64,000 nt of DNA from a virus (IMGVR_UViG_3300032216_001431:31488-95487), one strand, 5' to 3'; positions 11,636 through 64,000 are shown, counted from the stretch's first letter. Program-made: numbers and translations. Notes: generated by a model not told the origin, from the sequence alone.

Positions 11636-12682
11636 ATGCCAGATTATGTTTATATTTTTAATGGACAAAAATATACTGCAAATGCTATAAACATTAACAG
11701 TTATCAGAATATAGGTACCCTGACAACTGTAACTTTAGCAAATTTATCACAAGTTAATTACAATACATCTTTTACCCTCACCGCTACAATAAATTCAACC
11801 ACTACAGTAGCAGCAGGTGGAACTTTAACGCTTCAAAAACTTTCGGGCACATCATGGGTAACTGTTGCAACATCAACACTCTCTTTTGCGGGAGGTAGTA
11901 CGCCTTGGTCAAGTACAGCATCATTTACGGGGTTAAAACAAACTACTGTAACAACTTATAGGGTTTTATATGGTGGTGATTCTAGTTATAGAAATGCTAC
12001 TTCTAATAGCGTTACGGTAAAATGTTGGGGTTCAAAAACAACAACTAAAACTTTTTCATGTTATGCAGCCAGAAGTCATTATAATGTGGGATCAAATACC
12101 TATAGCAGCCTTATTCGATCAGGAACAGACCTGTATCAGGGGTACGAATCTTCTTATGGTAAAGAGGTTAGTCAAGTACTTTTTGATAACGGTAGCGCAG
12201 TTCCATATTACCTTAACGCAGAAGGTGGGGGAGGAAGCACTTCTACTATTTTAGGTTATTTTAATAGTTTAAGTAAGGTAACAATATCAAAAGTTGAATT
12301 ATATTTAAATTGTAAGTCTTGGTCAGTATCAAGTGGGGGCACAGCATACATTTTTCCAGATGGGTCGTACATTCTACAACCATCCGGTGGGATAGATTTT
12401 ACTTATTATTCAGGAGTTGCAACGGCTACCTCAGCCTCTTGGTCAACTGTTTCTGGTGCAAAATGGATTGATATATCTTCCTTAACTTATTACGGTTTTC
12501 CTGCTATTGGATTGTGGGACTTCAATAATGGGGGGCAACAGTCTCTTTGGAGTTTTACCAATGGCATCAATCTTGCAAGAAATAGTACTTCCAATATTTA
12601 TGCTGGGCATTTTACTGGAAATGATAATACTACTTCAGAGCCACAACTTAGATTTACTTTTACCTATTACACTTATCTTTAA
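11636..12682 (+). CDS. Putative tail tip/receptor-binding protein with an Ig-like N-terminal region
   Basis: TLTATI..LTLQK..W.TVAT..YRVLYGGD..Y..ATSNSVTV Ig-like pattern; follows the giant fibre. Confidence 0.55.
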   Translation: MPDYVYIFNGQKYTANAININSYQNIGTLTTVTLANLSQVNYNTSFTLTATINSTTTVAAGGTLTLQKLSGTSWVTVATSTLSFAGGSTPWSSTASFTGLKQTTVTTYRVLYGGDSSYRNATSNSVTVKCWGSKTTTKTFSCYAARSHYNVGSNTYSSLIRSGTDLYQGYESSYGKEVSQVLFDNGSAVPYYLNAEGGGGSTSTILGYFNSLSKVTISKVELYLNCKSWSVSSGGTAYIFPDGSYILQPSGGIDFTYYSGVATATSASWSTVSGAKWIDISSLTYYGFPAIGLWDFNNGGQQSLWSFTNGINLARNSTSNIYAGHFTGNDNTTSEPQLRFTFTYYTYL

Positions 12683-12687
12683 AATGT

Positions 12688-12696
12688 TGGTATAAT
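12688..12696 (+). promoter_or_regulatory. Extended -10 promoter TGGTATAAT
   Basis: Intergenic consensus match. Confidence 0.6.
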
Positions 12697-12720
12697 AAAA
12701 GAAAAATATGCGGAGCAATT

Positions 12721-13077
12721 GTGAAAGAAGTTAATTATAATATTATTCAAGGGGACAGTTTTCAATTAGCCCTGACTTATACCGACTCTCTTGGTTCTCC
12801 GATTAATTTAACAGGTGCCTCAGCATATTTTGAGGTTAGAGATAAGCCGGGTGGTAGTATTTTGTCTGCTACTGCTTCTGGCGCTCCCGGCATTACAGGA
12901 GATGGTATTACGTTTACTGCCTCTGCTGGTTTAATAAATTTAAACATAAATCCTTCTAAGACTAAACTTTTTAATTATCCAAAATCTGCTTATCAGTTAC
13001 AATTAACATCTTCTGGCGGGATTAAAACAACTCTCCTTCAAGGATGGTTCCTTGTTAATGCAGGGGTTATTAATTAA
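12721..13077 (+). CDS. Small virion structural protein (BppU N-terminal-like adaptor)
   Basis: IIQGDSF..PINLTG..YQLQL..LLQG.F.V pattern common in phage fibre adaptors. Confidence 0.55.
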
Positions 13078-13499
13078 TGACAAAAAACATTATAATAGAA
13101 CAGACAAGTGTTCATAATGTAGAAACAGAAAAAGTTGTCAATCAAGTTGTTATGGTTGAACATTCTAACATTCTTGCTGTTTCTGATGTTGGGGTTCAAG
13201 GTCCACCGGGTTCTACTGGTCCACAGGGTTCAACTGGGCCTCAAGGGGCAACAGGACCGCAAGGTCCAACTGGTCCACAGGGTCCGGTAGGAGATGCGAC
13301 AGCAATATTAAGTTATAGGTTTGAGCAACAAAGTTTAGCAACAACATGGAATGTCACCCATAATCTTGGATATCGTCCAGCAGTAACAGTTCAGGATTAT
13401 GGACAAAATACAATAGAAGGGGATGTGCGACACACGTCAGTTAATAGTTTAACAATAACTTTTTCAACTGGACTTTCAGGGTACGCATATCTTTCATAG
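13077..13499 (+). CDS. Collagen-repeat fibre protein
   Basis: 11 Gly-X-Y triplets at 13191-13289; C-terminal [14 protein letters not shown] domain. Confidence 0.75.
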
Positions 13500-51295: not shown

Positions 51296-51368
51296 ACGCC
51301 GGTATCCTAGCGGTTTTGGAAGCGGTCTTATATACCGTGTATCGTGAGTTCGATTCTCACCCGGCGTA
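51296..51368 (+). tRNA. tRNA-Ile, anticodon UAU
   Basis: Acceptor ACGCCGG/CCGGCGT; anticodon arm GCGGT-CTTATAT-ACCGT; T arm GTGAG-TTCGATT-CTCAC; discriminator A; no encoded CCA. Confidence 0.88.
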
Positions 51369-51370
51369 CG

Positions 51371-53331: not shown

Positions 53332-54210
53332 ATGATGACAGGAACAACATTGGGTGGATGGCCCGGTATTAAGACAGCAAAAGAACAGAGTGTTCTTGTT
53401 TGGATTACCATTCCCGGCACCAAGAAGAAAGTTAGATTGCGTAAAGAGGTAGCCCCAGTGTTTGCTGCTTTTCTTTCAGAAGTTCATAAGCATGTAATTG
53501 ATCTTAATAAGGGTCCATTAGACGGATGGGAATATCGAGAGGCACGCACAGGAGCAGGTCTTTCTCAGCACGCCGGGGCGGTTGCGACAGATATGCGCTA
53601 TGATGTTCTTCTTGCCGATCATAGACGCCATATGACACAGACTCAGATTAATACAATGCACGCTCTATTAAATAAGTACACAACAACTAGTGGTAAGCGA
53701 GTTTTTGGCTGGGGCGGGGATTGGCAAGTTGGCAAGTTTTGTGATGAAATGCATCTAGAGGCTGTGCAATCATGGTCCCCATACAGCCAAGGTCACAATG
53801 CTACTGTAGCAGATTTCGCTAATGTGCAGAAGAAACTTCATATTAATTCTAATGGAACATTTAGTGTTGTGGGTAAGGTTGTTAATCCTGTTGTCAAGCC
53901 TGTTCCTGCTGTTGCTGTTAAAAAGCCAGCGACACCACCTGCACCTGTTCCTGTTGCAGTTAAATCAGTATCTGTAAAAGATTTTGTTTTGGGTAAGTCA
54001 AATGGTAGTGTTGTGACTGTTCAGAAGGCTCTTGCTAAAGAAAAGTATTATGGAGGTGCCATTGATGGTGTCTTTGGCCCTGCAACCCGCGCTGCATATG
54101 CTCACTGGCAGAAGTCTTTAGGTTATTCAGGCGCTCAGGCAAACGGTATTCCCGGCGTGTCTTCTCTTACCGCTTTAGGTACAAAATACAAGTTTAAAGT
54201 TGTTTCATAA
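53332..54210 (+). CDS. Endolysin: M15-like Zn peptidase, Pro/Val linker, peptidoglycan-binding domain
   Basis: SQH...A.D and DEMHLE; VQKAL..DGVFGPATRAAY..WQ..LG. Confidence 0.85.
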   Translation: MMTGTTLGGWPGIKTAKEQSVLVWITIPGTKKKVRLRKEVAPVFAAFLSEVHKHVIDLNKGPLDGWEYREARTGAGLSQHAGAVATDMRYDVLLADHRRHMTQTQINTMHALLNKYTTTSGKRVFGWGGDWQVGKFCDEMHLEAVQSWSPYSQGHNATVADFANVQKKLHINSNGTFSVVGKVVNPVVKPVPAVAVKKPATPPAPVPVAVKSVSVKDFVLGKSNGSVVTVQKALAKEKYYGGAIDGVFGPATRAAYAHWQKSLGYSGAQANGIPGVSSLTALGTKYKFKVVS

Positions 54211-54659
54211 TGGATGAATTAATTAATGAACTAAAATTATTGCAGGCAAATGTTGTTGCGATGTATGCTCAGTCACATGGGTATCATTGGAATGTTAAGG
54301 GTATGTTGTTTAAAGAGTTGCACGCATTTTTTCTAGAAATTTATGAAGATGTGTATGGTTCCCTCGATCCTATTTCTGAGAATATTAGAAAACTTGGTGG
54401 GGATGCTCCGTTTGGTCTTAGCACATGGTCTAATAATGCTACGTTTGAGGTTAATGAAGATCCTAATCTTTCTCCCGTTCAGATGCTTGGCGAATTGATC
54501 GTTGTTAATTCAATTCTTTTAACTCAGTTGAAGAAAGTTTTTGTTCTTGCTAACACTCAGAATGAGCAGGGTGTTGCTAATTTTATTGCAGAGCGTATTG
54601 ATCAGCATCAGTTCTGGAATTGGCAGTTGACTGCTACTTTAAGACCTACATTAGCCTAA
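54210..54659 (+). CDS. dps: Dps/ferritin-like DNA-protecting protein
   Basis: HGYHWNVKG..F.ELH.F..IYE...D.I.E.IR.LG; H..W.W.L. Confidence 0.92.
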   Translation: MDELINELKLLQANVVAMYAQSHGYHWNVKGMLFKELHAFFLEIYEDVYGSLDPISENIRKLGGDAPFGLSTWSNNATFEVNEDPNLSPVQMLGELIVVNSILLTQLKKVFVLANTQNEQGVANFIAERIDQHQFWNWQLTATLRPTLA

Positions 54660-54664
54660 AAGGG

Positions 54665-54693
54665 TTGACTTATAATAGTAAATGGAGTATTCT
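54665..54693 (+). promoter_or_regulatory. Sigma70/SigA-type promoter TTGACT-N17-TATTCT
   Basis: 17-nt spacing; predicted +1 near ATG 54700 (leaderless). Confidence 0.6.
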
Positions 54694-54699
54694 GGATGA

Positions 54700-55194
54700 A
54701 TGACTCCACTTATGCGAGTTATTACTCCCGTCGTTGCCCTTCTTACGGCAATTGCCGTACAGGTACCAATGGCCCAGAGTAGTAATGCAAGTAATGTAGT
54801 AGTATCGGCTGGCAGTTCCGTTAAAACTGTTAAAACAACACCAACAATCAAAATGATTAGACCGCTTGGACCCATTAAGGGTATCAAGCCTTCTGCATGG
54901 ACGGGTAAATATTATTACCCTAAATGGGAATTGGTTCGCAAATGCATTGTAAAAAGGGAAAGTGAAGGTCAATATAATGTTGTCAGTCACATTTCGTCCA
55001 GTGCTGGTGCTTATCAGTTTATCAAATTTTGGAGGCCCATTTTGGCTAAAAAATTAGGTAAGTCACATTTGGCTTACATTCCAATTAATCATTGGAGCCG
55101 CGTTGATCAAGATCACGCTTTTTGGATTGTATGGAATAATGGAAAGGGAAGAAGCAATTGGGGACCAGCAGGTGCCCGATATAACTGCTTCTAA
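54700..55194 (+). CDS. Secreted lysozyme-fold transglycosylase (Rpf-like)
   Basis: Signal peptide; C...RES.G.Y...AGAYQF...Q...W. Confidence 0.8.
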   Translation: MTPLMRVITPVVALLTAIAVQVPMAQSSNASNVVVSAGSSVKTVKTTPTIKMIRPLGPIKGIKPSAWTGKYYYPKWELVRKCIVKRESEGQYNVVSHISSSAGAYQFIKFWRPILAKKLGKSHLAYIPINHWSRVDQDHAFWIVWNNGKGRSNWGPAGARYNCF

Positions 55195-55196
55195 AA

Positions 55197-55227
55197 AAGG
55201 TGGGGGAGAGATCCCCCACCTTCTATT
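55197..55227 (+). terminator. Intrinsic terminator, possibly bidirectional
   Basis: AAGGTGGGGGA-GAGA-TCCCCCACCTT, A-run before and T-rich after. Confidence 0.75.
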
Positions 55228-55241
55228 GAAATAGGAGAATT

Positions 55242-55583
55242 ATGTACGAGTATAAAGCAACAGTAGAAAAGATTATTGATGGTGACACGATTGATGTCAT
55301 GATTGATTTAGGTTTTTATGTTTATAAGGTAGAGCGAGTTCGTTTAGCAAGAATTAATTGTCCAGAACTTTCGACTCCCGAAGGACAGGTTTCTAAGCAA
55401 TTTGTTATTGATTATCTGGCACAGAAACAGGTAACCATTAAGACACAAAAGAATATTTATGATAAATATGGTCGTTGGATTGCTGATGTTTTTGTTGCTG
55501 ATCAATGTCTTAATGACATTCTTCTAGAAAAGAATCTTGCTGTTCATTGGCCTGCTAAGGTGGCAACGGGAGGGCTTTCCTAA
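55242..55583 (+). CDS. Thermonuclease (SNase-like)
   Basis: IIDGDTIDV, RL..I.CPE, DKYGR..A. Confidence 0.9.
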   Translation: MYEYKATVEKIIDGDTIDVMIDLGFYVYKVERVRLARINCPELSTPEGQVSKQFVIDYLAQKQVTIKTQKNIYDKYGRWIADVFVADQCLNDILLEKNLAVHWPAKVATGGLS

Positions 55584-56719
55584 TGCGCGTTGGAATGCTT
55601 AGTGCAGACTGGGGGGATTATGCTACTAGTAGTCCCGGCGGTTGTACATGGATTAGGTTTTTTGGTCCTGCAGAGAAGATGGTAGAAAAAGGTTGGGAAG
55701 TTTTCATTGGAGAATTTGGCTGGGATGACAAGGAAGGTTTTACAGTTGTTCCAACTCAATCAAGGATGATGAGCCATGATAGAGGGTTAATTAAAAATGA
55801 TCCGCAGGCCGTTGGGGGTTTAGATGTTGTTATTTTTAAATTGTGGATGTGGCATGAAGCCAACGAGTATATTGAAAAGGCTAAGAAACTTGGTCAAACT
55901 GTAATCATTGATATTGATGATTGGTTTCATGGTCTTCCTACAACAAACATTGCTTTCCATACCACTCATCCAGATAAGGATGCAAAATGGAATAGAAATC
56001 ACATGCTTGGAACTTATCGCAATGTTACTGGATTAATTACAAGCACTAAGTTTCTTTATGATTATTATTCAAAGTCTAATCCGAATTGTGAATTGGTTAG
56101 AAATTCTCTTAATCCTAAGTATTTTGTTAAAAGGTATGATGCTGCTCGTAATCATCCAACTGTTGGTTGGGTTGGCATTATGATCTGGCGTTCGGGTGAT
56201 ATTGAAACTTTGAAGGGTTGGCTTGGGCCGACACTTGATAAGTATGATTTGCGTTTTCATCATGCTGGTATAGACCCAAACAAGCCACATGAGTTCGCAG
56301 AGATTGCGGGAGTTAATCCAGATAGACTTAGTGGCACTACAGGAGCGTCCCCACAGCAGTATGGAAACATTCTTTTACCAATGGACATTGCTTTAGTTCC
56401 TCTAAATACCTTGCCCTTTAACGAGGCTAAGAGTAATCTTAAAGGACTAGAGTATGCTTTCAGTGGCATCCCGTTTGTAGCAGCGGATACTTATGAGTAC
56501 AGATTGCTTTCTGAGCAGGGTGCTGGCAATGTCGCTTCCCGACCCAAGGACTGGATGAAGGCTATTCAGAAACTAATTGATCCAGACGAAAGAAAGCGTC
56601 AGGCTGATAGAGGGTATAATACTGTTATGGAACATTATAATCTTGAGACTAGGGTTGATACTTGGATGACTGCGATTGAAAAGATTCATTCTACTAATCC
56701 AAAGAGGCGCAATGGCTGA
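55583..56719 (+). CDS. GT-B (GT4-like) glycosyltransferase
   Basis: DIDD, VGWVG, DIALVPL..FNEAKSNLK.LEY...GIP. Confidence 0.85.
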   Translation: MRVGMLSADWGDYATSSPGGCTWIRFFGPAEKMVEKGWEVFIGEFGWDDKEGFTVVPTQSRMMSHDRGLIKNDPQAVGGLDVVIFKLWMWHEANEYIEKAKKLGQTVIIDIDDWFHGLPTTNIAFHTTHPDKDAKWNRNHMLGTYRNVTGLITSTKFLYDYYSKSNPNCELVRNSLNPKYFVKRYDAARNHPTVGWVGIMIWRSGDIETLKGWLGPTLDKYDLRFHHAGIDPNKPHEFAEIAGVNPDRLSGTTGASPQQYGNILLPMDIALVPLNTLPFNEAKSNLKGLEYAFSGIPFVAADTYEYRLLSEQGAGNVASRPKDWMKAIQKLIDPDERKRQADRGYNTVMEHYNLETRVDTWMTAIEKIHSTNPKRRNG

Positions 56720-57005
56720 TTTCTTTTATAAATTAGGATATTATTCTGTTTATGTTGCTAATGTGTTAGCATATGTTCTTGGGACAGCAGGTGTCGTTTA
56801 CTATATTTATAATAAGGAATTGCCCTTTCTCCCTTTTATTTTTTTAATGGTTTATTCTATCTGGAAGAAAACATTTATTATTTATCAAAATAGTCAAGTT
56901 AATAATATGAATAATGTGATCACAGCAACTATCGATACAAATCAGTTAGAAGATGTTATTAATTCTATTAATTATAAAAATATGTATTTAGGTGGACCAA
57001 ATTAA
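56712..57005 (+). CDS. Two-helix membrane protein
   Basis: Two hydrophobic segments; GAGG RBS before ATG 56712. Confidence 0.65.
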   Translation: MADFFYKLGYYSVYVANVLAYVLGTAGVVYYIYNKELPFLPFIFLMVYSIWKKTFIIYQNSQVNNMNNVITATIDTNQLEDVINSINYKNMYLGGPN

Positions 57006-57518
57006 ATGACTTGTATCGTGGCTTTGGAAGATAATGGAAAAATTTACATGGGGGCTGATTCAGCAGCCGTGGATGGGGAAGCAATTTCATTAAGAAAAGA
57101 GCCAAAGATATTTAAGTGTGGTGATTTTTTGATTGGTTTTTCTCATAGTTTTAGGTATGGTCAAATAGTTGAACATTGTTTTAAGCCTCCTAAAGTTACG
57201 GAAAAAAATATTGTTAAGTATATGGTCACTAAATTTGTACCGGAATTAAGAATAACTCTCGCTATGAATGATTTTGAAGAAAAAGAATCTTGTATGATTA
57301 TTGGGTATAATGGTAAAATCTTTTATGTGGAGAGTGATTGGAATGTTGGTTATGATGAAACAAACTATCATTCGATAGGTTCTGGGGCACCAGCGGCCTT
57401 TGGATCGCTATACTCTACAAAAGGTCAACACCCAATGGACCGTGTAAGAATTGCTTTAGAAGCAGCACAAGAGTTTACAACAAGTGTCCGTGGTCCATTT
57501 AACTATTTAGATATTTAA
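57006..57518 (+). CDS. Ntn-hydrolase, HslV/proteasome-beta-like peptidase
   Basis: N-terminal MTCIVAL, GADS, K, IGSG..A.G. Confidence 0.75.
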   Translation: MTCIVALEDNGKIYMGADSAAVDGEAISLRKEPKIFKCGDFLIGFSHSFRYGQIVEHCFKPPKVTEKNIVKYMVTKFVPELRITLAMNDFEEKESCMIIGYNGKIFYVESDWNVGYDETNYHSIGSGAPAAFGSLYSTKGQHPMDRVRIALEAAQEFTTSVRGPFNYLDI

Positions 57519-57698
57519 ATGAACGATAAACTTGATTTATCAGGAATAATTACGCATGAATGTATTTGTGGCTCAAACATGTGGAATCTTGTAGTTTCTT
57601 TTGAGGATTATGAGATATCAGCATATCTTTTAGAAATGGAATGCACCTTTTGCGGTACAATTGCTACCGCCCCAACACCATTAGATAGGGAATATTAA
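57519..57698 (+). CDS. 59-aa Zn-ribbon protein not in the ORF track
   Basis: HECICGS...ECTFCG..ATAPTP.D. Confidence 0.7.
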   Translation: MNDKLDLSGIITHECICGSNMWNLVVSFEDYEISAYLLEMECTFCGTIATAPTPLDREY

Positions 57699-57880
57699 TG
57701 TCAAGCGATATTGAAGATTTGAAAAGAAACTTTACTGCAGCATCAAACGAATTGAAGAAGTGTGTCGGCAATAAGCCGGGGATGAATGCAGAAATGAAAT
57801 ACGGTCAAGCATACATGGCCTTGGTTAAGGCTGGAGTTGCACCTAAGTTGAAGAAGAAGTATCGTGGCGGTCTAAAGTGA
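57698..57880 (+). CDS. Small basic hypothetical protein
   Basis: Coupled ORF; E.KYGQAY..LVKAG..P.LKKKYR. Confidence 0.65.
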   Translation: MSSDIEDLKRNFTAASNELKKCVGNKPGMNAEMKYGQAYMALVKAGVAPKLKKKYRGGLK

Positions 57881-58062
57881 ATATTGATGATCTGTATGAA
57901 AGAATAACTCAAGAGGTAACTGAAAAATTTCATGATAAATATATTTCAACGGGTCATCGATATAATGATGAAACAATGCATATTGCAGAAGAGTACGTTC
58001 GATTTATTATTGATGAATTTACATCAGCCTTTTGGGATGAAAGAGAGATTATAGATGAATAA
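57877..58062 (+). CDS. Hypothetical protein
   Basis: Coupled 61 aa ORF. Confidence 0.55.
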   Translation: MNIDDLYERITQEVTEKFHDKYISTGHRYNDETMHIAEEYVRFIIDEFTSAFWDEREIIDE

Positions 58063-59350
58063 ACGCAGCGAAATTGCTGTGGCTATTTTTGGTTTAGGTT
58101 TGGGACTTGTTTTTGGAAGTTCCATTTTTATTGTACCTAAACCTTTGTTAGGTCTAAGTTCCCTTGGTCATATTTTTGCTATGACTGGAACCTACTTATG
58201 TCTTGTAATGATACTCTTGTCTTCTAGAATTCCCATACTTGAACGTGGAGTAGGGCATGACAAAATGATACTATGGCATAGGAAAATAGCCCCCTACGCT
58301 CTCCTGCTCATCTTTCTTCACATAAACATGAACACTTTATCTTATGCTAAAGGTGTTCGTAAAACTTTTATGGATCAGATCCAACTTTTTTATACAGAAT
58401 ACCCTTGGATGCCTCAAGCAATCATTGCTGGTTTAATGATGTTTATATTAGGAATTATAAGTTATAAAAAAATCAGGACCATGATGCGGTATGAAGTTTG
58501 GTGGTCTTTACATTTATTATTTTATGTTTCTGTAGTATTAGCATTTGGGCATCAATTAGAAGTAGGAAGTATTTTTGTTAAACACCCTTGGATTAAGTCA
58601 GGGTGGATTGTGTTGTATGTAGGAACATTCTTAATTATTTTTGTGACAAGACTCCTACTGCCAACCTTGTTCTCTTACAAACATAAATTAAAAATTGATC
58701 GTGTAATTAGAGAAAGCAAAGATGTTTATAGTGTTTATATAAACGGGAAAGACCTTGACAAGGTATATGCTCATGGTGGACAATTCTTTCAGTGGAGATT
58801 TCTTACAAGAAAATGGTGGTGGCAGGCACATCCATATTCCCTGTCCCGTTCTCCAAAAAATGGACAACTTAGAATCACTGTTAAAATTTTAGGTGATCAT
58901 AGTTATGATGTAGCAAAGAGATTACGTCCCGGCACTAGAATTTTTGCTGAAGGCCCGTACGGAATTTTTACTTCAAAGAGGCGGGAAGGAAATCTAATAG
59001 CAGCGTTTGCTTCAGGTATTGGAATTACCCCAATCTTGGCGATGCTGGAAGAACTTCCTAAAAGGGCAGACGTTATTTTAATTTACAGAGTTTCTAGTGA
59101 AGACGATATAATTCTTTACGAAGATCTAGAAAGTTTGTTTTTAACAAATCACTGGAAATTATATTATTTAATCGGTGATCGAAAAGAACATCCGATGACT
59201 GCTAACCACATACGTCAGTACATCCCAGATCTTGGTTTTAGAGAAGTTTATGTATGTGGGTCAGAAGGTTTTATGGATGATGTAATTACGCTTGCATTAA
59301 ATGCAGGTGTTATGGATAATAGGATATACCACGAATCATTTTCGTTCTAA
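58055..59350 (+). CDS. Ferric-reductase/NADPH-oxidase-type membrane flavocytochrome
   Basis: About six TM helices with two His pairs (WHRK..FLH; LHLL..FGH); FAD motif HPYSLS; EGPYG; GIGITP; VCGS; terminal ESFSF. Confidence 0.9.
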   Translation: MNKRSEIAVAIFGLGLGLVFGSSIFIVPKPLLGLSSLGHIFAMTGTYLCLVMILLSSRIPILERGVGHDKMILWHRKIAPYALLLIFLHINMNTLSYAKGVRKTFMDQIQLFYTEYPWMPQAIIAGLMMFILGIISYKKIRTMMRYEVWWSLHLLFYVSVVLAFGHQLEVGSIFVKHPWIKSGWIVLYVGTFLIIFVTRLLLPTLFSYKHKLKIDRVIRESKDVYSVYINGKDLDKVYAHGGQFFQWRFLTRKWWWQAHPYSLSRSPKNGQLRITVKILGDHSYDVAKRLRPGTRIFAEGPYGIFTSKRREGNLIAAFASGIGITPILAMLEELPKRADVILIYRVSSEDDIILYEDLESLFLTNHWKLYYLIGDRKEHPMTANHIRQYIPDLGFREVYVCGSEGFMDDVITLALNAGVMDNRIYHESFSF

Positions 59351-59359
59351 GGAGAACAC

Positions 59360-59842
59360 ATGCAAGTTTTTATGTCAGAGTACACGTTTGAAGAGTCTGC
59401 TAAGGTACTAGACAATAAGCGTTTGGTCAAGCAGTTGCTTGAGGGTCGTCAGATTCTCGCTGCGCTTTCAGGGCAGACTAAGGGGTGGCGTAACCATCCA
59501 GCAACAAGGATGTTTGAGGGGTATGAACCTGCCCTATTTGATTACTTGTACTATGTTGCTAAGGAAATGGAACGTCGTGGCTACAAGACTGAGAATAATT
59601 GGAATGAAATTGTAAGGCTTGGATTAGCCCACTTTATTGTTGATAGTGATTACGAGATGCCCCCTTGGTTTGTTGATCGGTCAACTCTTCATAGTGTTGT
59701 AACTACTCATCGTAGAAGCCTTTACAATAAAGCCCCAGAGTTGTATCCTCAGTATGAGTATGAAGCATCTATCGGTGCTGATTTTGTTTGTTGTGATAGT
59801 TGTAACTATTATTGGCCTACACATGTAAAGGAAAAAGTATGA
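59360..59842 (+). CDS. Pyrimidine-dimer DNA glycosylase (DenV/MSMEG_6728-like)
   Basis: MQVF..LD.KRL.KQ..E..Q..GW.NHPA..M..H...L..K.P..Y..Y.WP. Confidence 0.85.
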   Translation: MQVFMSEYTFEESAKVLDNKRLVKQLLEGRQILAALSGQTKGWRNHPATRMFEGYEPALFDYLYYVAKEMERRGYKTENNWNEIVRLGLAHFIVDSDYEMPPWFVDRSTLHSVVTTHRRSLYNKAPELYPQYEYEASIGADFVCCDSCNYYWPTHVKEKV

Positions 59843-60069
59843 CAAGCATCGAATATAAAGATCTGCGTATTAGTCCAGAAGAATTTTTGACTATTGTGGC
59901 AAAGGTCTATGAAAAAATTGACCTTGGTCCTAATATGTATGAGCGTGGGCACCCAGAGGATGTTTACGTTAACCTTGAAGTTGTTTTTAATAGTGTTGGT
60001 CAGGGTATTGTTGAATATATTGAGCAGGTTAAAATGGCTGTTCAAACTAGTAATCGAAAGGAAAAGTAA
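59839..60069 (+). CDS. Hypothetical protein
   Basis: ATGA overlap; AAGGA RBS. Confidence 0.6.
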   Translation: MTSIEYKDLRISPEEFLTIVAKVYEKIDLGPNMYERGHPEDVYVNLEVVFNSVGQGIVEYIEQVKMAVQTSNRKEK

Positions 60070-60284
60070 TGGCTTCTATTCTTACTACAGCAACTGTAGA
60101 TCATCAGGGAAATGAATTGTCTGTTCATTGTACTGATGCTAATACTGGTATTACCATGAAGGTTATAGTACCTTCAGATGCCATGAACGAAGACACGCGC
60201 AAGTCAGTTGGTGTCCTTGCGGCTAATATGCCGGAAGCATTTTTGAGAGGCGTTATGATGATTGCAGAGAGTCCAGATGAGTGA
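60069..60284 (+). CDS. Hypothetical protein
   Basis: Coupled ORF with RBS. Confidence 0.6.
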   Translation: MASILTTATVDHQGNELSVHCTDANTGITMKVIVPSDAMNEDTRKSVGVLAANMPEAFLRGVMMIAESPDE

Positions 60285-60528
60285 TGTTCTACCTGTGAAT
60301 ATTGGTGATTCTGTAACAATTTTTCTTGCTAATTATTTTCCAATTATTTGTAATATTGATGATATTGATGATAAATTCATTTATTTAAGTAACGGTTCAA
60401 AAGCCGACATTTATACTGGAAATATATATAATCCAGAAACCGAAGAAACTTTGGCATATATAGTTTATCCACCTGTAACAAATCAAGGAAATAATAATCT
60501 ACCACCCCCGCCATTTCCTATTGATTAG
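60277..60528 (+). CDS. Hypothetical protein
   Basis: Coupled ORF with Pro-rich end. Confidence 0.55.
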   Translation: MSDVLPVNIGDSVTIFLANYFPIICNIDDIDDKFIYLSNGSKADIYTGNIYNPETEETLAYIVYPPVTNQGNNNLPPPPFPID

Positions 60529-60611
60529 GTATTTATAAGAAAAATAATTATGTGTAAAATATACATTAAAAATATGGAGATAATAATGAAAATTAATCAG
60601 GGAAATCATCG

Positions 60612-60854
60612 ATGATTAAAGTCACTGTTAGTGAAGATTCATGGTACCCCGTCTATACGTTAGATAAGTCATCCAGTGTTTTGGATGACACAATTGAAAT
60701 TCCAGAGGCTATTTATTCTCGTTACCTCAAAATCATTCATGATTTTGAGGATATGCAAGATGAGATTCGTCAGTTCCAAACTGAGCAGAATGATTACGAG
60801 TATGAGAAGCATAGTTCGTGGACTCAAGTAAAAATGTTAAGGTATCGGGATTAA
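60612..60854 (+). CDS. Hypothetical protein
   Basis: 80 aa; WYPVY motif. Confidence 0.6.
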   Translation: MIKVTVSEDSWYPVYTLDKSSSVLDDTIEIPEAIYSRYLKIIHDFEDMQDEIRQFQTEQNDYEYEKHSSWTQVKMLRYRD

Positions 60855-60855
60855 G

Positions 60856-61026
60856 ATGGATGATCTTGAGCGGGATATGGAAAACTATTATCGGATTAAG
60901 TTTGCTTTAGAGATAGAGGATCATATCTATAATTCTAAAGACAATCCTATTGATGAGGATTCCCGCTGGTTTTTTAATGGAATGCGTTACGCCATGATGC
61001 TTTTGCGTCATGGTTCCTCGCCTTAG
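60856..61026 (+). CDS. 56-aa hypothetical protein not in the ORF track; 3' end overlaps tRNA-Arg
   Basis: MDDLERDMENYYRIKFALEIEDH...NGMRYAMMLLRHGSSP. Confidence 0.55.
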   Translation: MDDLERDMENYYRIKFALEIEDHIYNSKDNPIDEDSRWFFNGMRYAMMLLRHGSSP

Positions 61027-61089
61027 TTCAGGGGATAGAACGCGAAACTTCTAATTTCGATGTCGTTGGTTCGAATCCAACAGGTGAGA
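61017..61089 (+). tRNA. tRNA-Arg, anticodon UCU
   Basis: Acceptor CTCGCCT/AGGTGAG; D arm GTTC/GAAC with A20; CGAAA-CTTCTAA-TTTCG; GTTGG-TTCGAAT-CCAAC; no encoded CCA. Confidence 0.92.
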
Positions 61090-61111
61090 CAATTATTTAA
61101 TGGAGATTTTT

Positions 61112-61402
61112 ATGGATGAGATTGATGCTCTAATTGCAGAACTTGTTGATGCAGGAGCGTTGTTGGTTGACGGTATGCTTTTGGATGAGTTTACATATCG
61201 GTTTGATATGAAGATTCTTAAAGAAAAATACCCAGATATTTATGATATTGTTATGGAAGATATTGACGATGCTATGTTGGAATTGTTGGATCGTGAATAT
61301 ATTTCTGTTGAGTATAATGAGAATCTAGAAGCACGTTTTTCTCTTACTGAAAAAGGTTATGATAATTATAAAATAATTAAGGAGAGTCAGTCTGATGAGT
61401 GA
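61112..61402 (+). CDS. Acidic hypothetical protein, winged-helix-like C-terminus
   Basis: GGAG RBS before ATG 61112; L...YI.VEY.ENLEA.F.LTEKG. Confidence 0.65.
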   Translation: MDEIDALIAELVDAGALLVDGMLLDEFTYRFDMKILKEKYPDIYDIVMEDIDDAMLELLDREYISVEYNENLEARFSLTEKGYDNYKIIKESQSDE

Positions 61403-61679
61403 TTATATAAATGTTCCCGTTGATGTGGCGCGGGATATTGCTAAGTTTATTCGCAATAATGATAATGGTAATTTAGATCATTGGGCTGAGCATCTTGACC
61501 CTCTTAATTTATCAGATAGAATTTTTAGAATTGTTAATTTTTATATTAAATCTGAGGGTAATCCATACATGGCTACTAATGAGATTCTTGAAGAATTTGT
61601 TAATGTTATTGGTAGTGTTAAACTTATTGAAGATGCTTTTATTATTAAAAAAGACCTTGTTGGTTTAATTAATGGTTAA
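61395..61679 (+). CDS. Hypothetical protein
   Basis: Coupled ORF with AGGAG RBS. Confidence 0.6.
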   Translation: MSDYINVPVDVARDIAKFIRNNDNGNLDHWAEHLDPLNLSDRIFRIVNFYIKSEGNPYMATNEILEEFVNVIGSVKLIEDAFIIKKDLVGLING

Positions 61680-61809
61680 AGGTACGGGTAAGTTTGGTTG
61701 GTGTTTAACCGACCGGCATGACAACTGTAGAATAATTTTAACAGTTTTAGAAAGAAAATGTACATGCGAATGTCATGTTACTCAACAAAATACTGATAGT
61801 AATGTATAA
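61672..61809 (+). CDS. 45-aa Cys/His protein not in the ORF track
   Basis: FGWCLTDRHDNC...CTCECH. Confidence 0.6.
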   Translation: MVKGTGKFGWCLTDRHDNCRIILTVLERKCTCECHVTQQNTDSNV

Positions 61810-61810
61810 T
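61803..61810 (+). promoter_or_regulatory. -10 promoter element TGTATAAT
   Basis: Upstream of the AGGTGA RBS of the 61846 ORF. Confidence 0.5.
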
Positions 61811-61845
61811 GAAAGTATATCTTTAGAAAGTAGGTGAATTAATTC

Positions 61846-62136
61846 ATGGCAGATAATAATCAGCAGTTACCAAATGCTCAACAGCCTTCAGCCCGTCCAA
61901 ACGTAACATCAGAGGTCGGTCCAACAAATGCAGATAGTAATTCTTTGACAAACCGTCCCCTTTGGGATGGTGGTTACGAAGCAGTAAATCTTGGTACAAA
62001 CGAGCCTAAGACAATGGGTAGCGGTACTCCATTTGGTGGTTCAAATGTTTCAATGACAACTGGACAGCCTTATGGTGGTCCTATTGTAAGCACTGAGCAG
62101 GGTAAAGTAAGCAACGAAACCCGTCCAACAGCATGA
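61846..62136 (+). CDS. Disordered Pro/Gly/Asn/Thr-rich protein
   Basis: Strong RBS; LWDGG motif. Confidence 0.65.
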   Translation: MADNNQQLPNAQQPSARPNVTSEVGPTNADSNSLTNRPLWDGGYEAVNLGTNEPKTMGSGTPFGGSNVSMTTGQPYGGPIVSTEQGKVSNETRPTA

Positions 62137-62152
62137 TCCATGATTAAATAAT

Positions 62153-62683
62153 ATGGGAGAAAATCAGGGAAAAGTTTCACCATTGACTTCCTCCAGTAGT
62201 AATCATGATGAACAATCAGATAATTATGTAGAATACTACGTTAAAGGTGGTGAAAAAATGAACGAGAAAAATAGCGAAACAACCGAACCAGATCCTAATG
62301 GAGACATGGCTGTTTATAAGGATGTCGCTGGTGAGGGTACTTATAGTACTACCGCTAATTCCACCGTAGACGCCCCTTCTTCTTCTGATACAACAGAACC
62401 TATGGCTAAAGCAGCCTGCGCCGGTGATTGTTGTTCAGATTGTTCCTCCGATTGTGGTGGGGATTGTTGTGAAAAGTGCATGGGTATGTCAAAGGCTTCT
62501 TGCTGCTCAGATCATTCTTCTGATTGCAGTGGAGATTGTTGCGAAAAATGTATGGGTATGTCAAAGTCTGCTGATCAGCAGGATGACGGTTCCGATAAAG
62601 AGCCTGATGCAGATGTTGATGACATTCAGAAGAGTTATACACCAAAAAGTTTTTGGGGAAATTTCTTCCTTCCGGTAGACTAA
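62153..62683 (+). CDS. Acidic disordered protein with a metallothionein-like Cys-rich tandem repeat (start may be 62258)
   Basis: 14 Cys plus 1 His in 50 aa; AGGTGGTGA RBS before ATG 62258. Confidence 0.7.
   Translation: MGENQGKVSPLTSSSSNHDEQSDNYVEYYVKGGEKMNEKNSETTEPDPNGDMAVYKDVAGEGTYSTTANSTVDAPSSSDTTEPMAKAACAGDCCSDCSSDCGGDCCEKCMGMSKASCCSDHSSDCSGDCCEKCMGMSKSADQQDDGSDKEPDADVDDIQKSYTPKSFWGNFFLPVD
62429..62566 (+). repeat. 72-nt-period tandem coding repeat, 2 copies
   Basis: CCSDCSSDCGGDCCEKCMGMSK and CCSDHSSDCSGDCCEKCMGMSK. Confidence 0.9.
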
Positions 62684-62701
62684 TTTACCCGCTTTACTTA
62701 C

Positions 62702-62733
62702 GGACAGCGGCCTTGTGCCGCTGTTCTGTTTTT
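62702..62733 (+). terminator. Intrinsic terminator
   Basis: GGACAGCGGC-CTTGT-GCCGCTGTTC followed by TGTTTTT. Confidence 0.8.
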
Positions 62734-62743
62734 AGGAGAAAAT

Positions 62744-62932
62744 ATGAAAGTTATTCCAGAAGATGCTGTCTGTGTAATTTGTGATTCAGATGCAGAGTAT
62801 ATGGTTTGGGGATCGGTTCCAATGAAAACTTGGTGTTTTGATCATCTTATGGAAAAGACTGAGGGCACCTGTTATGTTTTCAAAAAGGACGGGACTGCTT
62901 CATTTTTAATTGATGGGAAGTTTAAGGTATGA
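62744..62932 (+). CDS. Small Zn-finger-like protein
   Basis: CVIC...WCFDH; AGGAG RBS. Confidence 0.6.
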   Translation: MKVIPEDAVCVICDSDAEYMVWGSVPMKTWCFDHLMEKTEGTCYVFKKDGTASFLIDGKFKV

Positions 62933-63327
62933 GAATTTTAATTGTTGGTTCTAAGAATTGGACTAACTATGATGAGTTGATGAGAAATATCACAGTTGCT
63001 ATTGAAGATCTTACTCAGCGTAATCCTGATGATAATAAGATTGTTTTTGTCCATACGGGGATTGCTGGTGCTGAAAATATGGTTACTGAGTATATTGGTA
63101 AAGTTGAAAGATACATGAAACAAAAGGGTTTCAGTGTTAAAGAAGAGTTAGTTCGTAATAAGTATAGTGGTAATGCTATGGATAAGGTTACTTCTGATTA
63201 TGATATGATTTCTTCCGGTGTTGACTGTGCGTTAGTTTTTATTAGACAGTCTTGTAAACGGTCTGAATATTGTCTGAGACTTATCAAAGAACTGGATATT
63301 CCCGTCAAACTAGTAAAAGAAAACTGA
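62929..63327 (+). CDS. SLOG-superfamily (DUF2493-like) protein
   Basis: MRILIVGSKNW.NY, VH.G..GAE, D..LVF. Confidence 0.6.
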   Translation: MRILIVGSKNWTNYDELMRNITVAIEDLTQRNPDDNKIVFVHTGIAGAENMVTEYIGKVERYMKQKGFSVKEELVRNKYSGNAMDKVTSDYDMISSGVDCALVFIRQSCKRSEYCLRLIKELDIPVKLVKEN

Positions 63328-63389
63328 TACAATTAGTAAAGATAGTCCTAATTGGGTTATCAAAAAAACAAGGAGAAATAAATATACTC

Positions 63390-64000
63390 ATGAGTAGAGT
63401 TAAGAAAACGAAATATAATAAGAAAGCAATTTTTGCAATTAGTGCTATTGCTGGTATTGGCGCTGCTGGTATCGCAACTAGTGCTATGGCAGACATTTCA
63501 CTTCCCTTTCCTGTTGATGCACCGGATTTGGAAAGTTTAACTGTTGTCGCAAACGCTAATTCAACTGTTTATGCGAGGAATGCTCAGATGTCCTTGACGA
63601 CAACTAGCAGCAAGAATATCGTAGTTCCCGGCAGTACAGTTACATATACCTACAAGGTACTTAATACTGGTACTATAGATTTCAAAAATTTAATAATCGA
63701 GGATGACAAGTGTTCACCAATCGCTTATGTAAACGGAAATAATTCAGATCCGCTTCTTAACGTAGGCGAGACTTGGACATATACTTGTTCTACAAAGGTT
63801 CTCAAGGACCAGACAAATAATGCTAAGGTTACAGGAACTCCTGTACTTCCTTCTAGCACCGCTGCCCCTACACCAACACCAACACCAACTGGTACCGTTA
63901 CACCAACACCAACACCTAGCCCAACTGCTACTGGCAGCACCATCAAAGATGGTACATACCTTGGCAAGCAGGCAACTGTTGTAGTTGCTGGAGAAGGAAT
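63390..64000 (+). CDS. Secreted protein, 3'-truncated: signal peptide, DUF11-like Ig domain, PT linker, probable start of an FMN-binding domain
   Basis: Not in the track (no stop in window). MSRVKKTKYNKKAIFAISAIAGIGAAGIATSAMA; PGSTVTYTYKVLNTG..DDKC..L.VGETWTYTC; (PT)n; KDGTYLG. Confidence 0.7.
   Translation, partial: MSRVKKTKYNKKAIFAISAIAGIGAAGIATSAMADISLPFPVDAPDLESLTVVANANSTVYARNAQMSLTTTSSKNIVVPGSTVTYTYKVLNTGTIDFKNLIIEDDKCSPIAYVNGNNSDPLLNVGETWTYTCSTKVLKDQTNNAKVTGTPVLPSSTAAPTPTPTPTGTVTPTPTPSPTATGSTIKDGTYLGKQATVVVAGEG

Follow-up and report, generated by a model that had tools for sequence, protein, structure and literature searches.

A virus-derived stretch of DNA, IMGVR_UViG_3300032216_001431:31488-95487 (hereafter the window: 64,000 nucleotides, one strand, taken from the end of a linear IMG/VR record of 95,487 bp, with base 64000 at the physical end of the contig), encodes a 431-residue flavocytochrome of the NOX/ferric-reductase type (58055-59350, plus strand; hereafter phage NOX) and, at its edge, a putative extracytosolic flavoprotein with a flavin mononucleotide (FMN)-binding FMN_bind domain (63390-64000, plus strand). 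Overall, we believe that this phage encodes two of the three parts of the actinobacterial "MsrQ-like" flavinylation-dependent transmembrane electron-transfer system, with the third part, the flavin transferase ApbE, most likely supplied by the host; we put the probability of such a coupled conduit at roughly 0.55. Consider an infected cell in which both phage proteins are made. The flavocytochrome, seated in the cytoplasmic membrane, would take electrons from NAD(P)H by way of flavin adenine dinucleotide (FAD) and, over a pair of b-type hemes, move them to the far side of the membrane. The second protein, secreted or anchored, would present its FMN_bind domain outside the membrane on a protease-resistant CLIPPER_2 stalk and a flexible Pro/Thr linker, and its SGAT motif would receive a covalent FMN, joined to the Thr by the host ApbE. 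The reduced flavin could then pass its electrons to an extracytosolic acceptor, for which Fe(III), O2 and quinone or humic compounds are candidates.

The flavocytochrome is the firmer of the two components. A preliminary description of this DNA, made from its sequence, had credited 58055-59350 with all the motifs of a heme, FAD and NAD(P)H membrane oxidoreductase, and profile searches, residue conservation and structure prediction now bear this out. In Pfam the protein matches Ferric_reduct (57.8 bits), FAD_binding_8 (29.4) and NAD_binding_1 (30.8), all above their cut-offs. The predicted bis-heme ligands are H75 (58277), H89 (58319), H153 (58511) and H166 (58550); they are followed by the motif HPYS of the cytoplasmic FAD domain (residues 259-262, 58829-58840) and by the NAD(P)H motifs EGPYG (residues 299-303, 58949-58963), GIGITP, of the form GxGxTP (residues 321-326, 59015-59032), and CG (residues 401-402, 59255-59260). 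All of these residues, GxGxTP being taken in its general form, are invariant in alignments of 17 and of 65 homologues, and the two histidine pairs lie 14 and 13 residues apart on the third and fifth transmembrane helices, the spacing typical of the NOX bis-heme site. The AlphaFold2 (AF2) model is confident (pLDDT 89, pTM 0.85) and contains six long helices. In Foldseek its leading matches are the SpNOX structures 8qta, 8qt6 and 8qq7 (TM-scores 0.68-0.80; for 8qta, E 4e-18, with 0.74 by query and 0.80 by target), followed by human NOX2, NOX5 and DUOX1, and the C-terminal domain also matches the SpNOX DH domain (8qq5, 8qq1) by sequence. By every feature computed, the protein is thus a complete six-helix, bis-heme, FAD/NAD(P)H flavocytochrome of the NOX type, with cofactor binding predicted.

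The second component runs into the contig end with 203 of approximately 293-297 residues encoded, and its reading is necessarily less direct. It was described at the outset as an open reading frame (ORF) with a signal peptide, an Ig domain, a PT stalk and the motif KDGTYLG at 63945, and this architecture is upheld by Pfam and by the sequence itself. The signal-like N-terminus (63390-63491) consists, as read by eye, of KKTKYNKK and a 22-residue hydrophobic stretch ending in a cleavage-like AMA/D site. The Ig-like domain (approximately 63588-63842) is CLIPPER_2 (DUF7507; 32.5 bits against a cut-off of 27), and a Pro/Thr linker (approximately 63843-63935) connects it to the FMN_bind domain, whose first 18 residues, beginning with KDGTYLG, lie inside the window. 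The caveat that the FMN call depended on a short motif at the window edge still holds within the window, where this 18-residue piece matches a hidden Markov model (HMM) built in this analysis with an E-value of 1e-4; related phages settle the identity of the domain. Full-length orthologues of 293-297 residues, 71-94% identical to the window fragment, occur in five related phage contigs (IMG/VR 3300032215_000643, 3300032236_001747 and 3300032271_001005, and two ENA contigs of ~100 kb), and one of them (in L015) agrees letter for letter with the last 18 residues of the window. Looking past position 64000 in this way finds two of the features that had been proposed for a check, namely Pfam FMN_bind (PF04205), at 29.0-30.6 bits against a cut-off of 22, and the [S/T]GA[S/T] flavinylation motif, since all five orthologues end in NIAxISGATYTT...AGF. 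We assign the 63390 ORF to FMN_bind because its orthologues carry both the domain and SGAT; the window by itself holds 18 domain residues. More widely, a motif of the type [S/A/T]G[A/S][S/T] is kept in the listed full-length relatives (P0121-P0209) with the exception of P0178, which is longer and whose match covers only 34% of the query.

Structure prediction agrees with this reading. The AF2 model of the whole protein has two confident domains with the disordered linker between them. The FMN_bind domain matches 8p2a, the crystal structure of a covalently flavinylated domain, both by sequence, through SGATYT, and by fold (TM-score 0.85 by AF2 and Foldseek, 32% identity). The CLIPPER_2 beta-sandwich (residues 67-152, pLDDT 81-88) matches the CLIPPER structure 9ifr weakly (TM-score 0.46 by target). 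CLIPPER_2 has been described as a CnaA-like cell-surface stalk domain that often contains an isopeptide bond (bioRxiv 10.1101/2025.04.25.650565), and a corresponding triad of Lys, Asn and catalytic Asp (K75, D105/D106, N143) is invariant in the five close phage orthologues. Across 48 family members, D105 alone of the triad is nearly invariant, and Cys108 and Cys133 are invariant, which suggests a disulfide between these two cysteines in place of the isopeptide. Together, these features support the 63390 ORF as an extracytosolic FMN_bind flavinylation target, its location and the attachment of FMN being predicted.

The link between the two proteins comes from their cellular relatives. The closest non-phage homologues of phage NOX, 45-51% identical, belong to freshwater Actinomycetota, many of them labelled Candidatus Nanopelagicales, and every cellular context inspected shows one order: NOX, then a membrane-anchored FMN_bind protein whose linker is rich in Pro, Thr and Ala, then ApbE. 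By the HMMs built here, an FMN_bind partner accompanies NOX in 74 of 80 species-genome loci, and both FMN_bind and ApbE lie within 5 kb of it in 68. This cellular operon is the MsrQ-like flavinylation system that Meheust et al. (eLife 2021, PMC8238504) defined bioinformatically from 1797 clusters, mostly in Actinobacteria, 1437 of which include an NAD-binding domain. The tendency of FMN_bind domains to cluster with ferric-reductase-like NAD(P)H oxidoreductases and the ApbE transferase in Actinobacteria, stated in the preliminary description, is thereby substantiated both by the loci inspected here and by that survey.

The same pairing recurs in phages. Among NOX-bearing phage contigs that reach far enough to be assessed (such contigs being 40-76% complete), six of six also carry the FMN protein (the source contig, G001, G002, G003, L015 and L017), with the FMN gene 72 bp upstream of NOX in L017, the most divergent of the six. 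The source contig contains no second FMN_bind domain. The substitution pattern in both genes is that of purifying selection: in unsaturated comparisons, and leaving out the NOX rows of L006, the ratio of nonsynonymous to synonymous substitution rates (dN/dS) ranges from 0.07 to 0.11 for NOX and from 0.14 to 0.17 for the FMN protein. An FMN domain, its flavinylation motif and co-occurrence with NOX in related phages were thus all found, and the original idea was not refuted.

At the same time, a number of observations weigh against a coupled conduit. In the window the two genes are ~4 kb and ~15 genes apart, as the preliminary description had cautioned, and between them a consensus scan finds a terminator-like hairpin (62702-62736, plus strand; a 10-bp stem with seven GC pairs, then a T-run), which suggests separate transcription units. 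The FMN protein is also widespread without NOX. It belongs to a CLIPPER_2-fused family of ~90 metagenomic sequence clusters. Phages that carry this family without NOX include a syntenic low-GC relative (L117), in which Dps, a glycosyltransferase, the HslV-like peptidase and Pyr_excise are retained; a 96-kb phage of 56% GC (L100); and temperate-type phages, in one of which (L118) the gene lies between endolysin and integrase. Two CheckV-complete genomes (G462 and G466, one of them 70,410 bp long with terminal repeats, the other 44,389 bp) carry the family, and neither contains a ferric-reductase domain or ApbE. Since the FMN protein occurs without NOX in these phages, it does not need a phage NOX. 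Nor is it an orthologue of the operon partner, an assignment that we considered and rejected: it is 22-31% identical to the operon partners and 39-41% identical to a different cellular subfamily. The proteins of this subfamily, the only cellular members of the CLIPPER_2-fused family that were found, came from 1 of the 401 Actinomycetes genomes sampled and, within one family, from 3 of 61 genomes; they adjoin a multicopper oxidase rather than NOX. Dps follows the low-GC phage lineage with or without NOX. Finally, apbE (PF02424) was not found in the source contig or in nine whole viral records (G001-G004, G462-G466). The NAD(P)H-to-surface conduit of the preliminary description therefore survives in part: the flavocytochrome, the FMN_bind target and their co-occurrence stand; no phage apbE was found in the records searched, the FMN protein is of another subfamily than the operon partner, and the tie to Dps has no specific support.

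A reasonable alternative, though one we rate at well below even odds, takes these observations at face value and holds that NOX and the FMN protein are morons, accessory genes independent of each other, which occur together only because one variable region of a single phage lineage houses both. Phage NOX would then feed a host FMN_bind partner or some other acceptor, and the phage FMN protein would draw on membrane donors of the host. The occurrence of the FMN protein without NOX in complete genomes and in the syntenic relative, its distance from the operon partner and the apparent separate transcription units all fit this alternative; the presence of the FMN protein in every assessable NOX-bearing contig, and a rearrangement that made the two genes adjacent in L017, are harder to reconcile with it. 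We consider it improbable that NOX works by itself, as an SpNOX-like NADPH oxidase that generates superoxide or H2O2 and serves to drain host NADPH, to signal or to harm competitors, with the FMN protein unrelated. The best structural match is indeed SpNOX, a constitutively active bacterial NADPH oxidase, and the neighbouring Dps and DNA-repair genes could offset oxidative damage. Nonetheless, the fold by itself is no proof of O2 reduction, and the nearest relatives of phage NOX are linked in operons to FMN_bind and ApbE (in 68 of the 80 loci), which points to a protein acceptor rather than to O2. That the genes are non-functional passengers, or that the contig is a chimera of phage and host sequence, is effectively refuted. 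In favour of this reading, the record is a linear metagenomic assembly of ~76% completeness by CheckV; against it, the same gene order recurs in independent assemblies from several samples, GC is uniform along the phage contig at ~37% as compared with 47-71% at the cellular loci, the ORFs are intact with dN/dS of at most 0.2, and phage hallmark genes flank the region. The contig is identified as phage by PHROGs or Pfam matches to a large terminase, tail fibre, DnaB helicase, DNA polymerase, HNH endonuclease and M15/PG_binding endolysin.

The preliminary description, which listed iron reduction beside redox balancing and superoxide production and had Dps shield phage DNA from Fenton chemistry, can be drawn out into an iron module: extracellular Fe(III) would be reduced for uptake by NOX together with the FMN protein, and Dps would also store the iron. 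We regard this version as unlikely. Dps itself is where it was placed, a 149-residue mini-ferritin at 54210-54659 (plus strand) that matches Pfam Ferritin (54.9 bits) and phrog_3636, and its ferroxidase residues are kept, the pattern HW..G...ELH..F.EIYED...D..SE aligning with 3iq1 and 8ff9. An iron role would also accord with the VIT1 iron transporter present in a subset of cellular MsrQ-like clusters, the only subset for which iron reduction has been proposed (PMC8238504), and with the multicopper oxidase beside the cellular FMN homologues, which may recall reductive iron uptake. However, neither the surroundings of the phage genes nor the inspected cellular operons showed an iron transporter, and no iron-dependent ribonucleotide reductase small subunit (R2) was found in the contig. 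Dps is present regardless of NOX, as in L117, and absent near the FMN gene in other phage lineages, a distribution on which we rejected it as part of the module; the proposed functional tie between Dps and NOX thus finds no specific support. Iron reduction, superoxide production and Fenton shielding are, for this phage, speculation.

Returning to the coupled conduit, the nearby apbE for which the preliminary description had proposed a scan did not turn up: besides the searches above, the ApbE HMM built here had no match in the inspected parts (±10 kb) of L015 and L017. Attempts to close the source genome were negative, since its ends do not overlap, the 63390 ORF read across the junction is nonsense, and the sequence of relatives downstream of the point equivalent to 64000 does not join the start of the contig. 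Because the genome stays open, ApbE in this phage is "not found" rather than proven absent. Candidate host lineages encode ApbE beside their own NOX operon, so that, with no phage apbE found, the flavin transferase is most likely supplied by the host, a dependence that is established only for the complete genomes lacking NOX and that we infer for the phage of the window.

The phylogenetic data give the two genes different histories. In a quick maximum-likelihood tree (IQ-TREE), all seven sequences of phage NOX group together (SH-aLRT 100) in a clade nested within the Nanopelagicales-type group and weakly sister to copies from lower-GC genomes (L011, GC 47%), and identity within the phage clade falls to 55%. 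This points to a single old capture of NOX from a freshwater Nanopelagicales-type actinobacterium, followed by retention in one low-GC phage group. The FMN protein, by comparison of its sequences, belongs to a wider phage family. In a likewise quick tree, in which several rows labelled as the NOX lineage are short contigs and the label there is provisional, the cellular copies form a separate long-branch clade and the type lacking NOX (L117) falls inside the low-GC phage group; NOX was probably lost in L117, or lies elsewhere on that contig.

Several genes beside these components deserve mention in their own right. A DenV-like pyrimidine-dimer DNA glycosylase (59360-59842, plus strand; Pfam Pyr_excise, 84 bits) lies directly downstream of NOX wherever NOX is present (L002, L005, L006, L015, L017) and also occurs in L117, and we treat it as context by synteny, not as a component. 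The small ORFs between NOX and the FMN gene have no Pfam match. One 176-residue protein in this interval (62153-62683, plus strand; 33-85% identity in related phages) has two tandem Cys-rich units (CCSDxSSDCxGDCCEKCMGMSK), gave no lead in Pfam, NCBIfam or Atlas, and may be metal-binding; downstream of its gene comes the strongest of the region's terminator-like hairpins. Also between NOX and the FMN gene lies a tRNA-Arg(TCT) (61017-61090, plus strand), and a tRNA-Ile(TAT) (51296-51369, plus strand) precedes the HNH gene; the two tRNAs serve codons ending in A or T, in keeping with the low GC of the phage. Directly upstream of the FMN gene, in the window and in L002, L006, L015 and L017, is a 132-residue SLOG/YspA-like protein (62929-63327, plus strand; a weak Pfam YAcAr match and phrog_289, "GTP-binding domain"). 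Right after the FMN gene, beyond the window end, related contigs encode a protein of 282-309 residues (L004 10996-11844, L005 11008-11937, L006 11008-11895) with a papain-like signature by eye (Q...GSC, GGHE, NSWG), a Pro/Thr linker, a small C-terminal domain and no Pfam match, which may be a second cell-wall hydrolase. A little further along, L006 encodes (12476-13090) a 204-residue protein rich in Pro, Thr and Ser, with a signal peptide, a C-terminal LAQTG, a hydrophobic segment and a basic tail, which looks like a phage-borne substrate of an actinobacterial sortase. Immediately after Dps is a 164-residue protein with a signal-like N-terminus (54700-55194, plus strand; 71-96% identity in most relatives), the C-terminal half of which resembles an L100 gene with a weak Transglycosylas (Rpf-like) match. 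An HslV-family peptidase-like protein (57006-57518, plus strand; phrog_1040, E 5e-24) is kept across the phage group.

On the cellular side, the CLIPPER_2-FMN_bind homologue beside the divergently transcribed multicopper oxidase (L099 8484-12275, L101 8133-12334) is followed by a second CLIPPER_2 protein of 461 residues that likewise ends in an FMN_bind-like domain. Next to cellular NOX/FMN_bind/ApbE operons (L013 3473-6001, L014 3446-6004, L018 13086-16070) lie fn3/RGI-lyase-like proteins of 842-994 residues that also match the FMN_bind HMM built here. Such cellular systems may therefore have several flavinylated clients.

Neither phage protein appears to have been described before. PHROGs has no family for either, and 50,697 deposited phage genomes contain no real homologue: tblastn with NOX gave only weak partial matches to FNR domains, and with the FMN protein none. 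In IMG/VR, NOX is confined to this small phage group. The literature on phage ferric reductases, FMN-binding proteins and ApbE, as far as our incomplete coverage extends, reports no phage version, and neither PMC8238504 nor the follow-up structural paper, which adds no biochemistry of MsrQ-like systems, mentions phages. The papers, PHROGs and deposited phage genomes searched thus yield no account of a virus that encodes both an enzyme for electron export across the membrane and an extracellular flavoprotein to match. Tentatively, and at slightly less than even odds, we propose a broader picture in which an actinophage family of secreted, host-ApbE-dependent flavoproteins (the ~90 clusters, in lytic- and temperate-type phages) plants flavin on the surface of the infected or lysogenised cell, and in which one low-GC freshwater lineage has also captured a host NOX and with it a NAD(P)H-to-surface conduit of its own. 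The NOX-family enzyme would then be the first known in a virus, and the electron-transfer chain the first extracytosolic one of viral origin.

Phage auxiliary metabolic genes are known for photosynthesis, nucleotide, sulfur and carbon metabolism. If the proposal is true, phages of the abundant freshwater Actinomycetota alter the redox chemistry of the host surface during infection, and the effect could be reduction of iron or humic compounds, production of reactive oxygen or drainage of NAD(P)H, with a bearing on iron and carbon cycling in lakes. The compact phage proteins (431 and ~295 residues) would also offer a minimal two-protein model for the cellular MsrQ-like system, and the CLIPPER_2-FMN_bind family in complete phage genomes lacking NOX and ApbE indicates a phage dependence on a host post-translational flavin transferase, which is a new kind of dependency.

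How, then, does this phage compare with known systems? On all features that could be tested, its proteins are members of the NOX/ferric-reductase superfamily, of FMN_bind and of Dps. Phage NOX shares with SpNOX, NOX2, NOX5 and DUOX the overall fold, and with SpNOX and the eukaryotic enzymes the 14/13 heme-His spacing, the FAD motif HP[FY][ST] and the NADPH motifs; it is only 14-18% identical to them in sequence, and SpNOX stands alone, without an FMN_bind or ApbE partner. The FMN protein shares with SaFMN3 (PDB 8p2a, PMC10339131), NqrC/RnfG and PplA the FMN_bind fold and SGATYT at the same position, and differs from this group in having a single FMN_bind domain behind a CLIPPER_2 stalk and Pro/Thr linker and in being phage-encoded; unlike the cellular operon partners, it also holds an insertion of ~20 residues (KNIGKYNVATxASMNxDPA) within the domain. 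Dps resembles other phage Dps proteins of phrog_3636, for example that of Synechococcus phage S-SRM01, as a ferritin-like protein with ferroxidase residues; its identity to the few Dps genes of deposited phages is only 25-28%. It is an ordinary family member. The MsrQ-like system, itself defined bioinformatically, is the closest parallel: both versions have a six-helix bis-heme PF01794 protein with a C-terminal FAD/NAD-binding domain and a (predicted) extracytosolic FMN_bind protein with the [S/T]GA[S/T] motif, and phage NOX is nested in the tree of the cellular members. By definition, that system has FMN_bind or ApbE within ~5 genes of PF01794, a range outside which the window's FMN gene falls, ~15 genes downstream, and inside which the adjacent genes of L017 lie; the phage records searched, of which those bearing NOX are incomplete, yielded no accompanying apbE. 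Phage NOX also lacks the N-terminal extension present in many cellular copies, and its FMN_bind companion comes from another subfamily. Relative to the cellular MsrQ-like system, what is new here is therefore a version with no ApbE found, with genes dispersed rather than joined in an operon (adjacent only in L017), with a flavoprotein fused to CLIPPER_2, and with a virus as its carrier.

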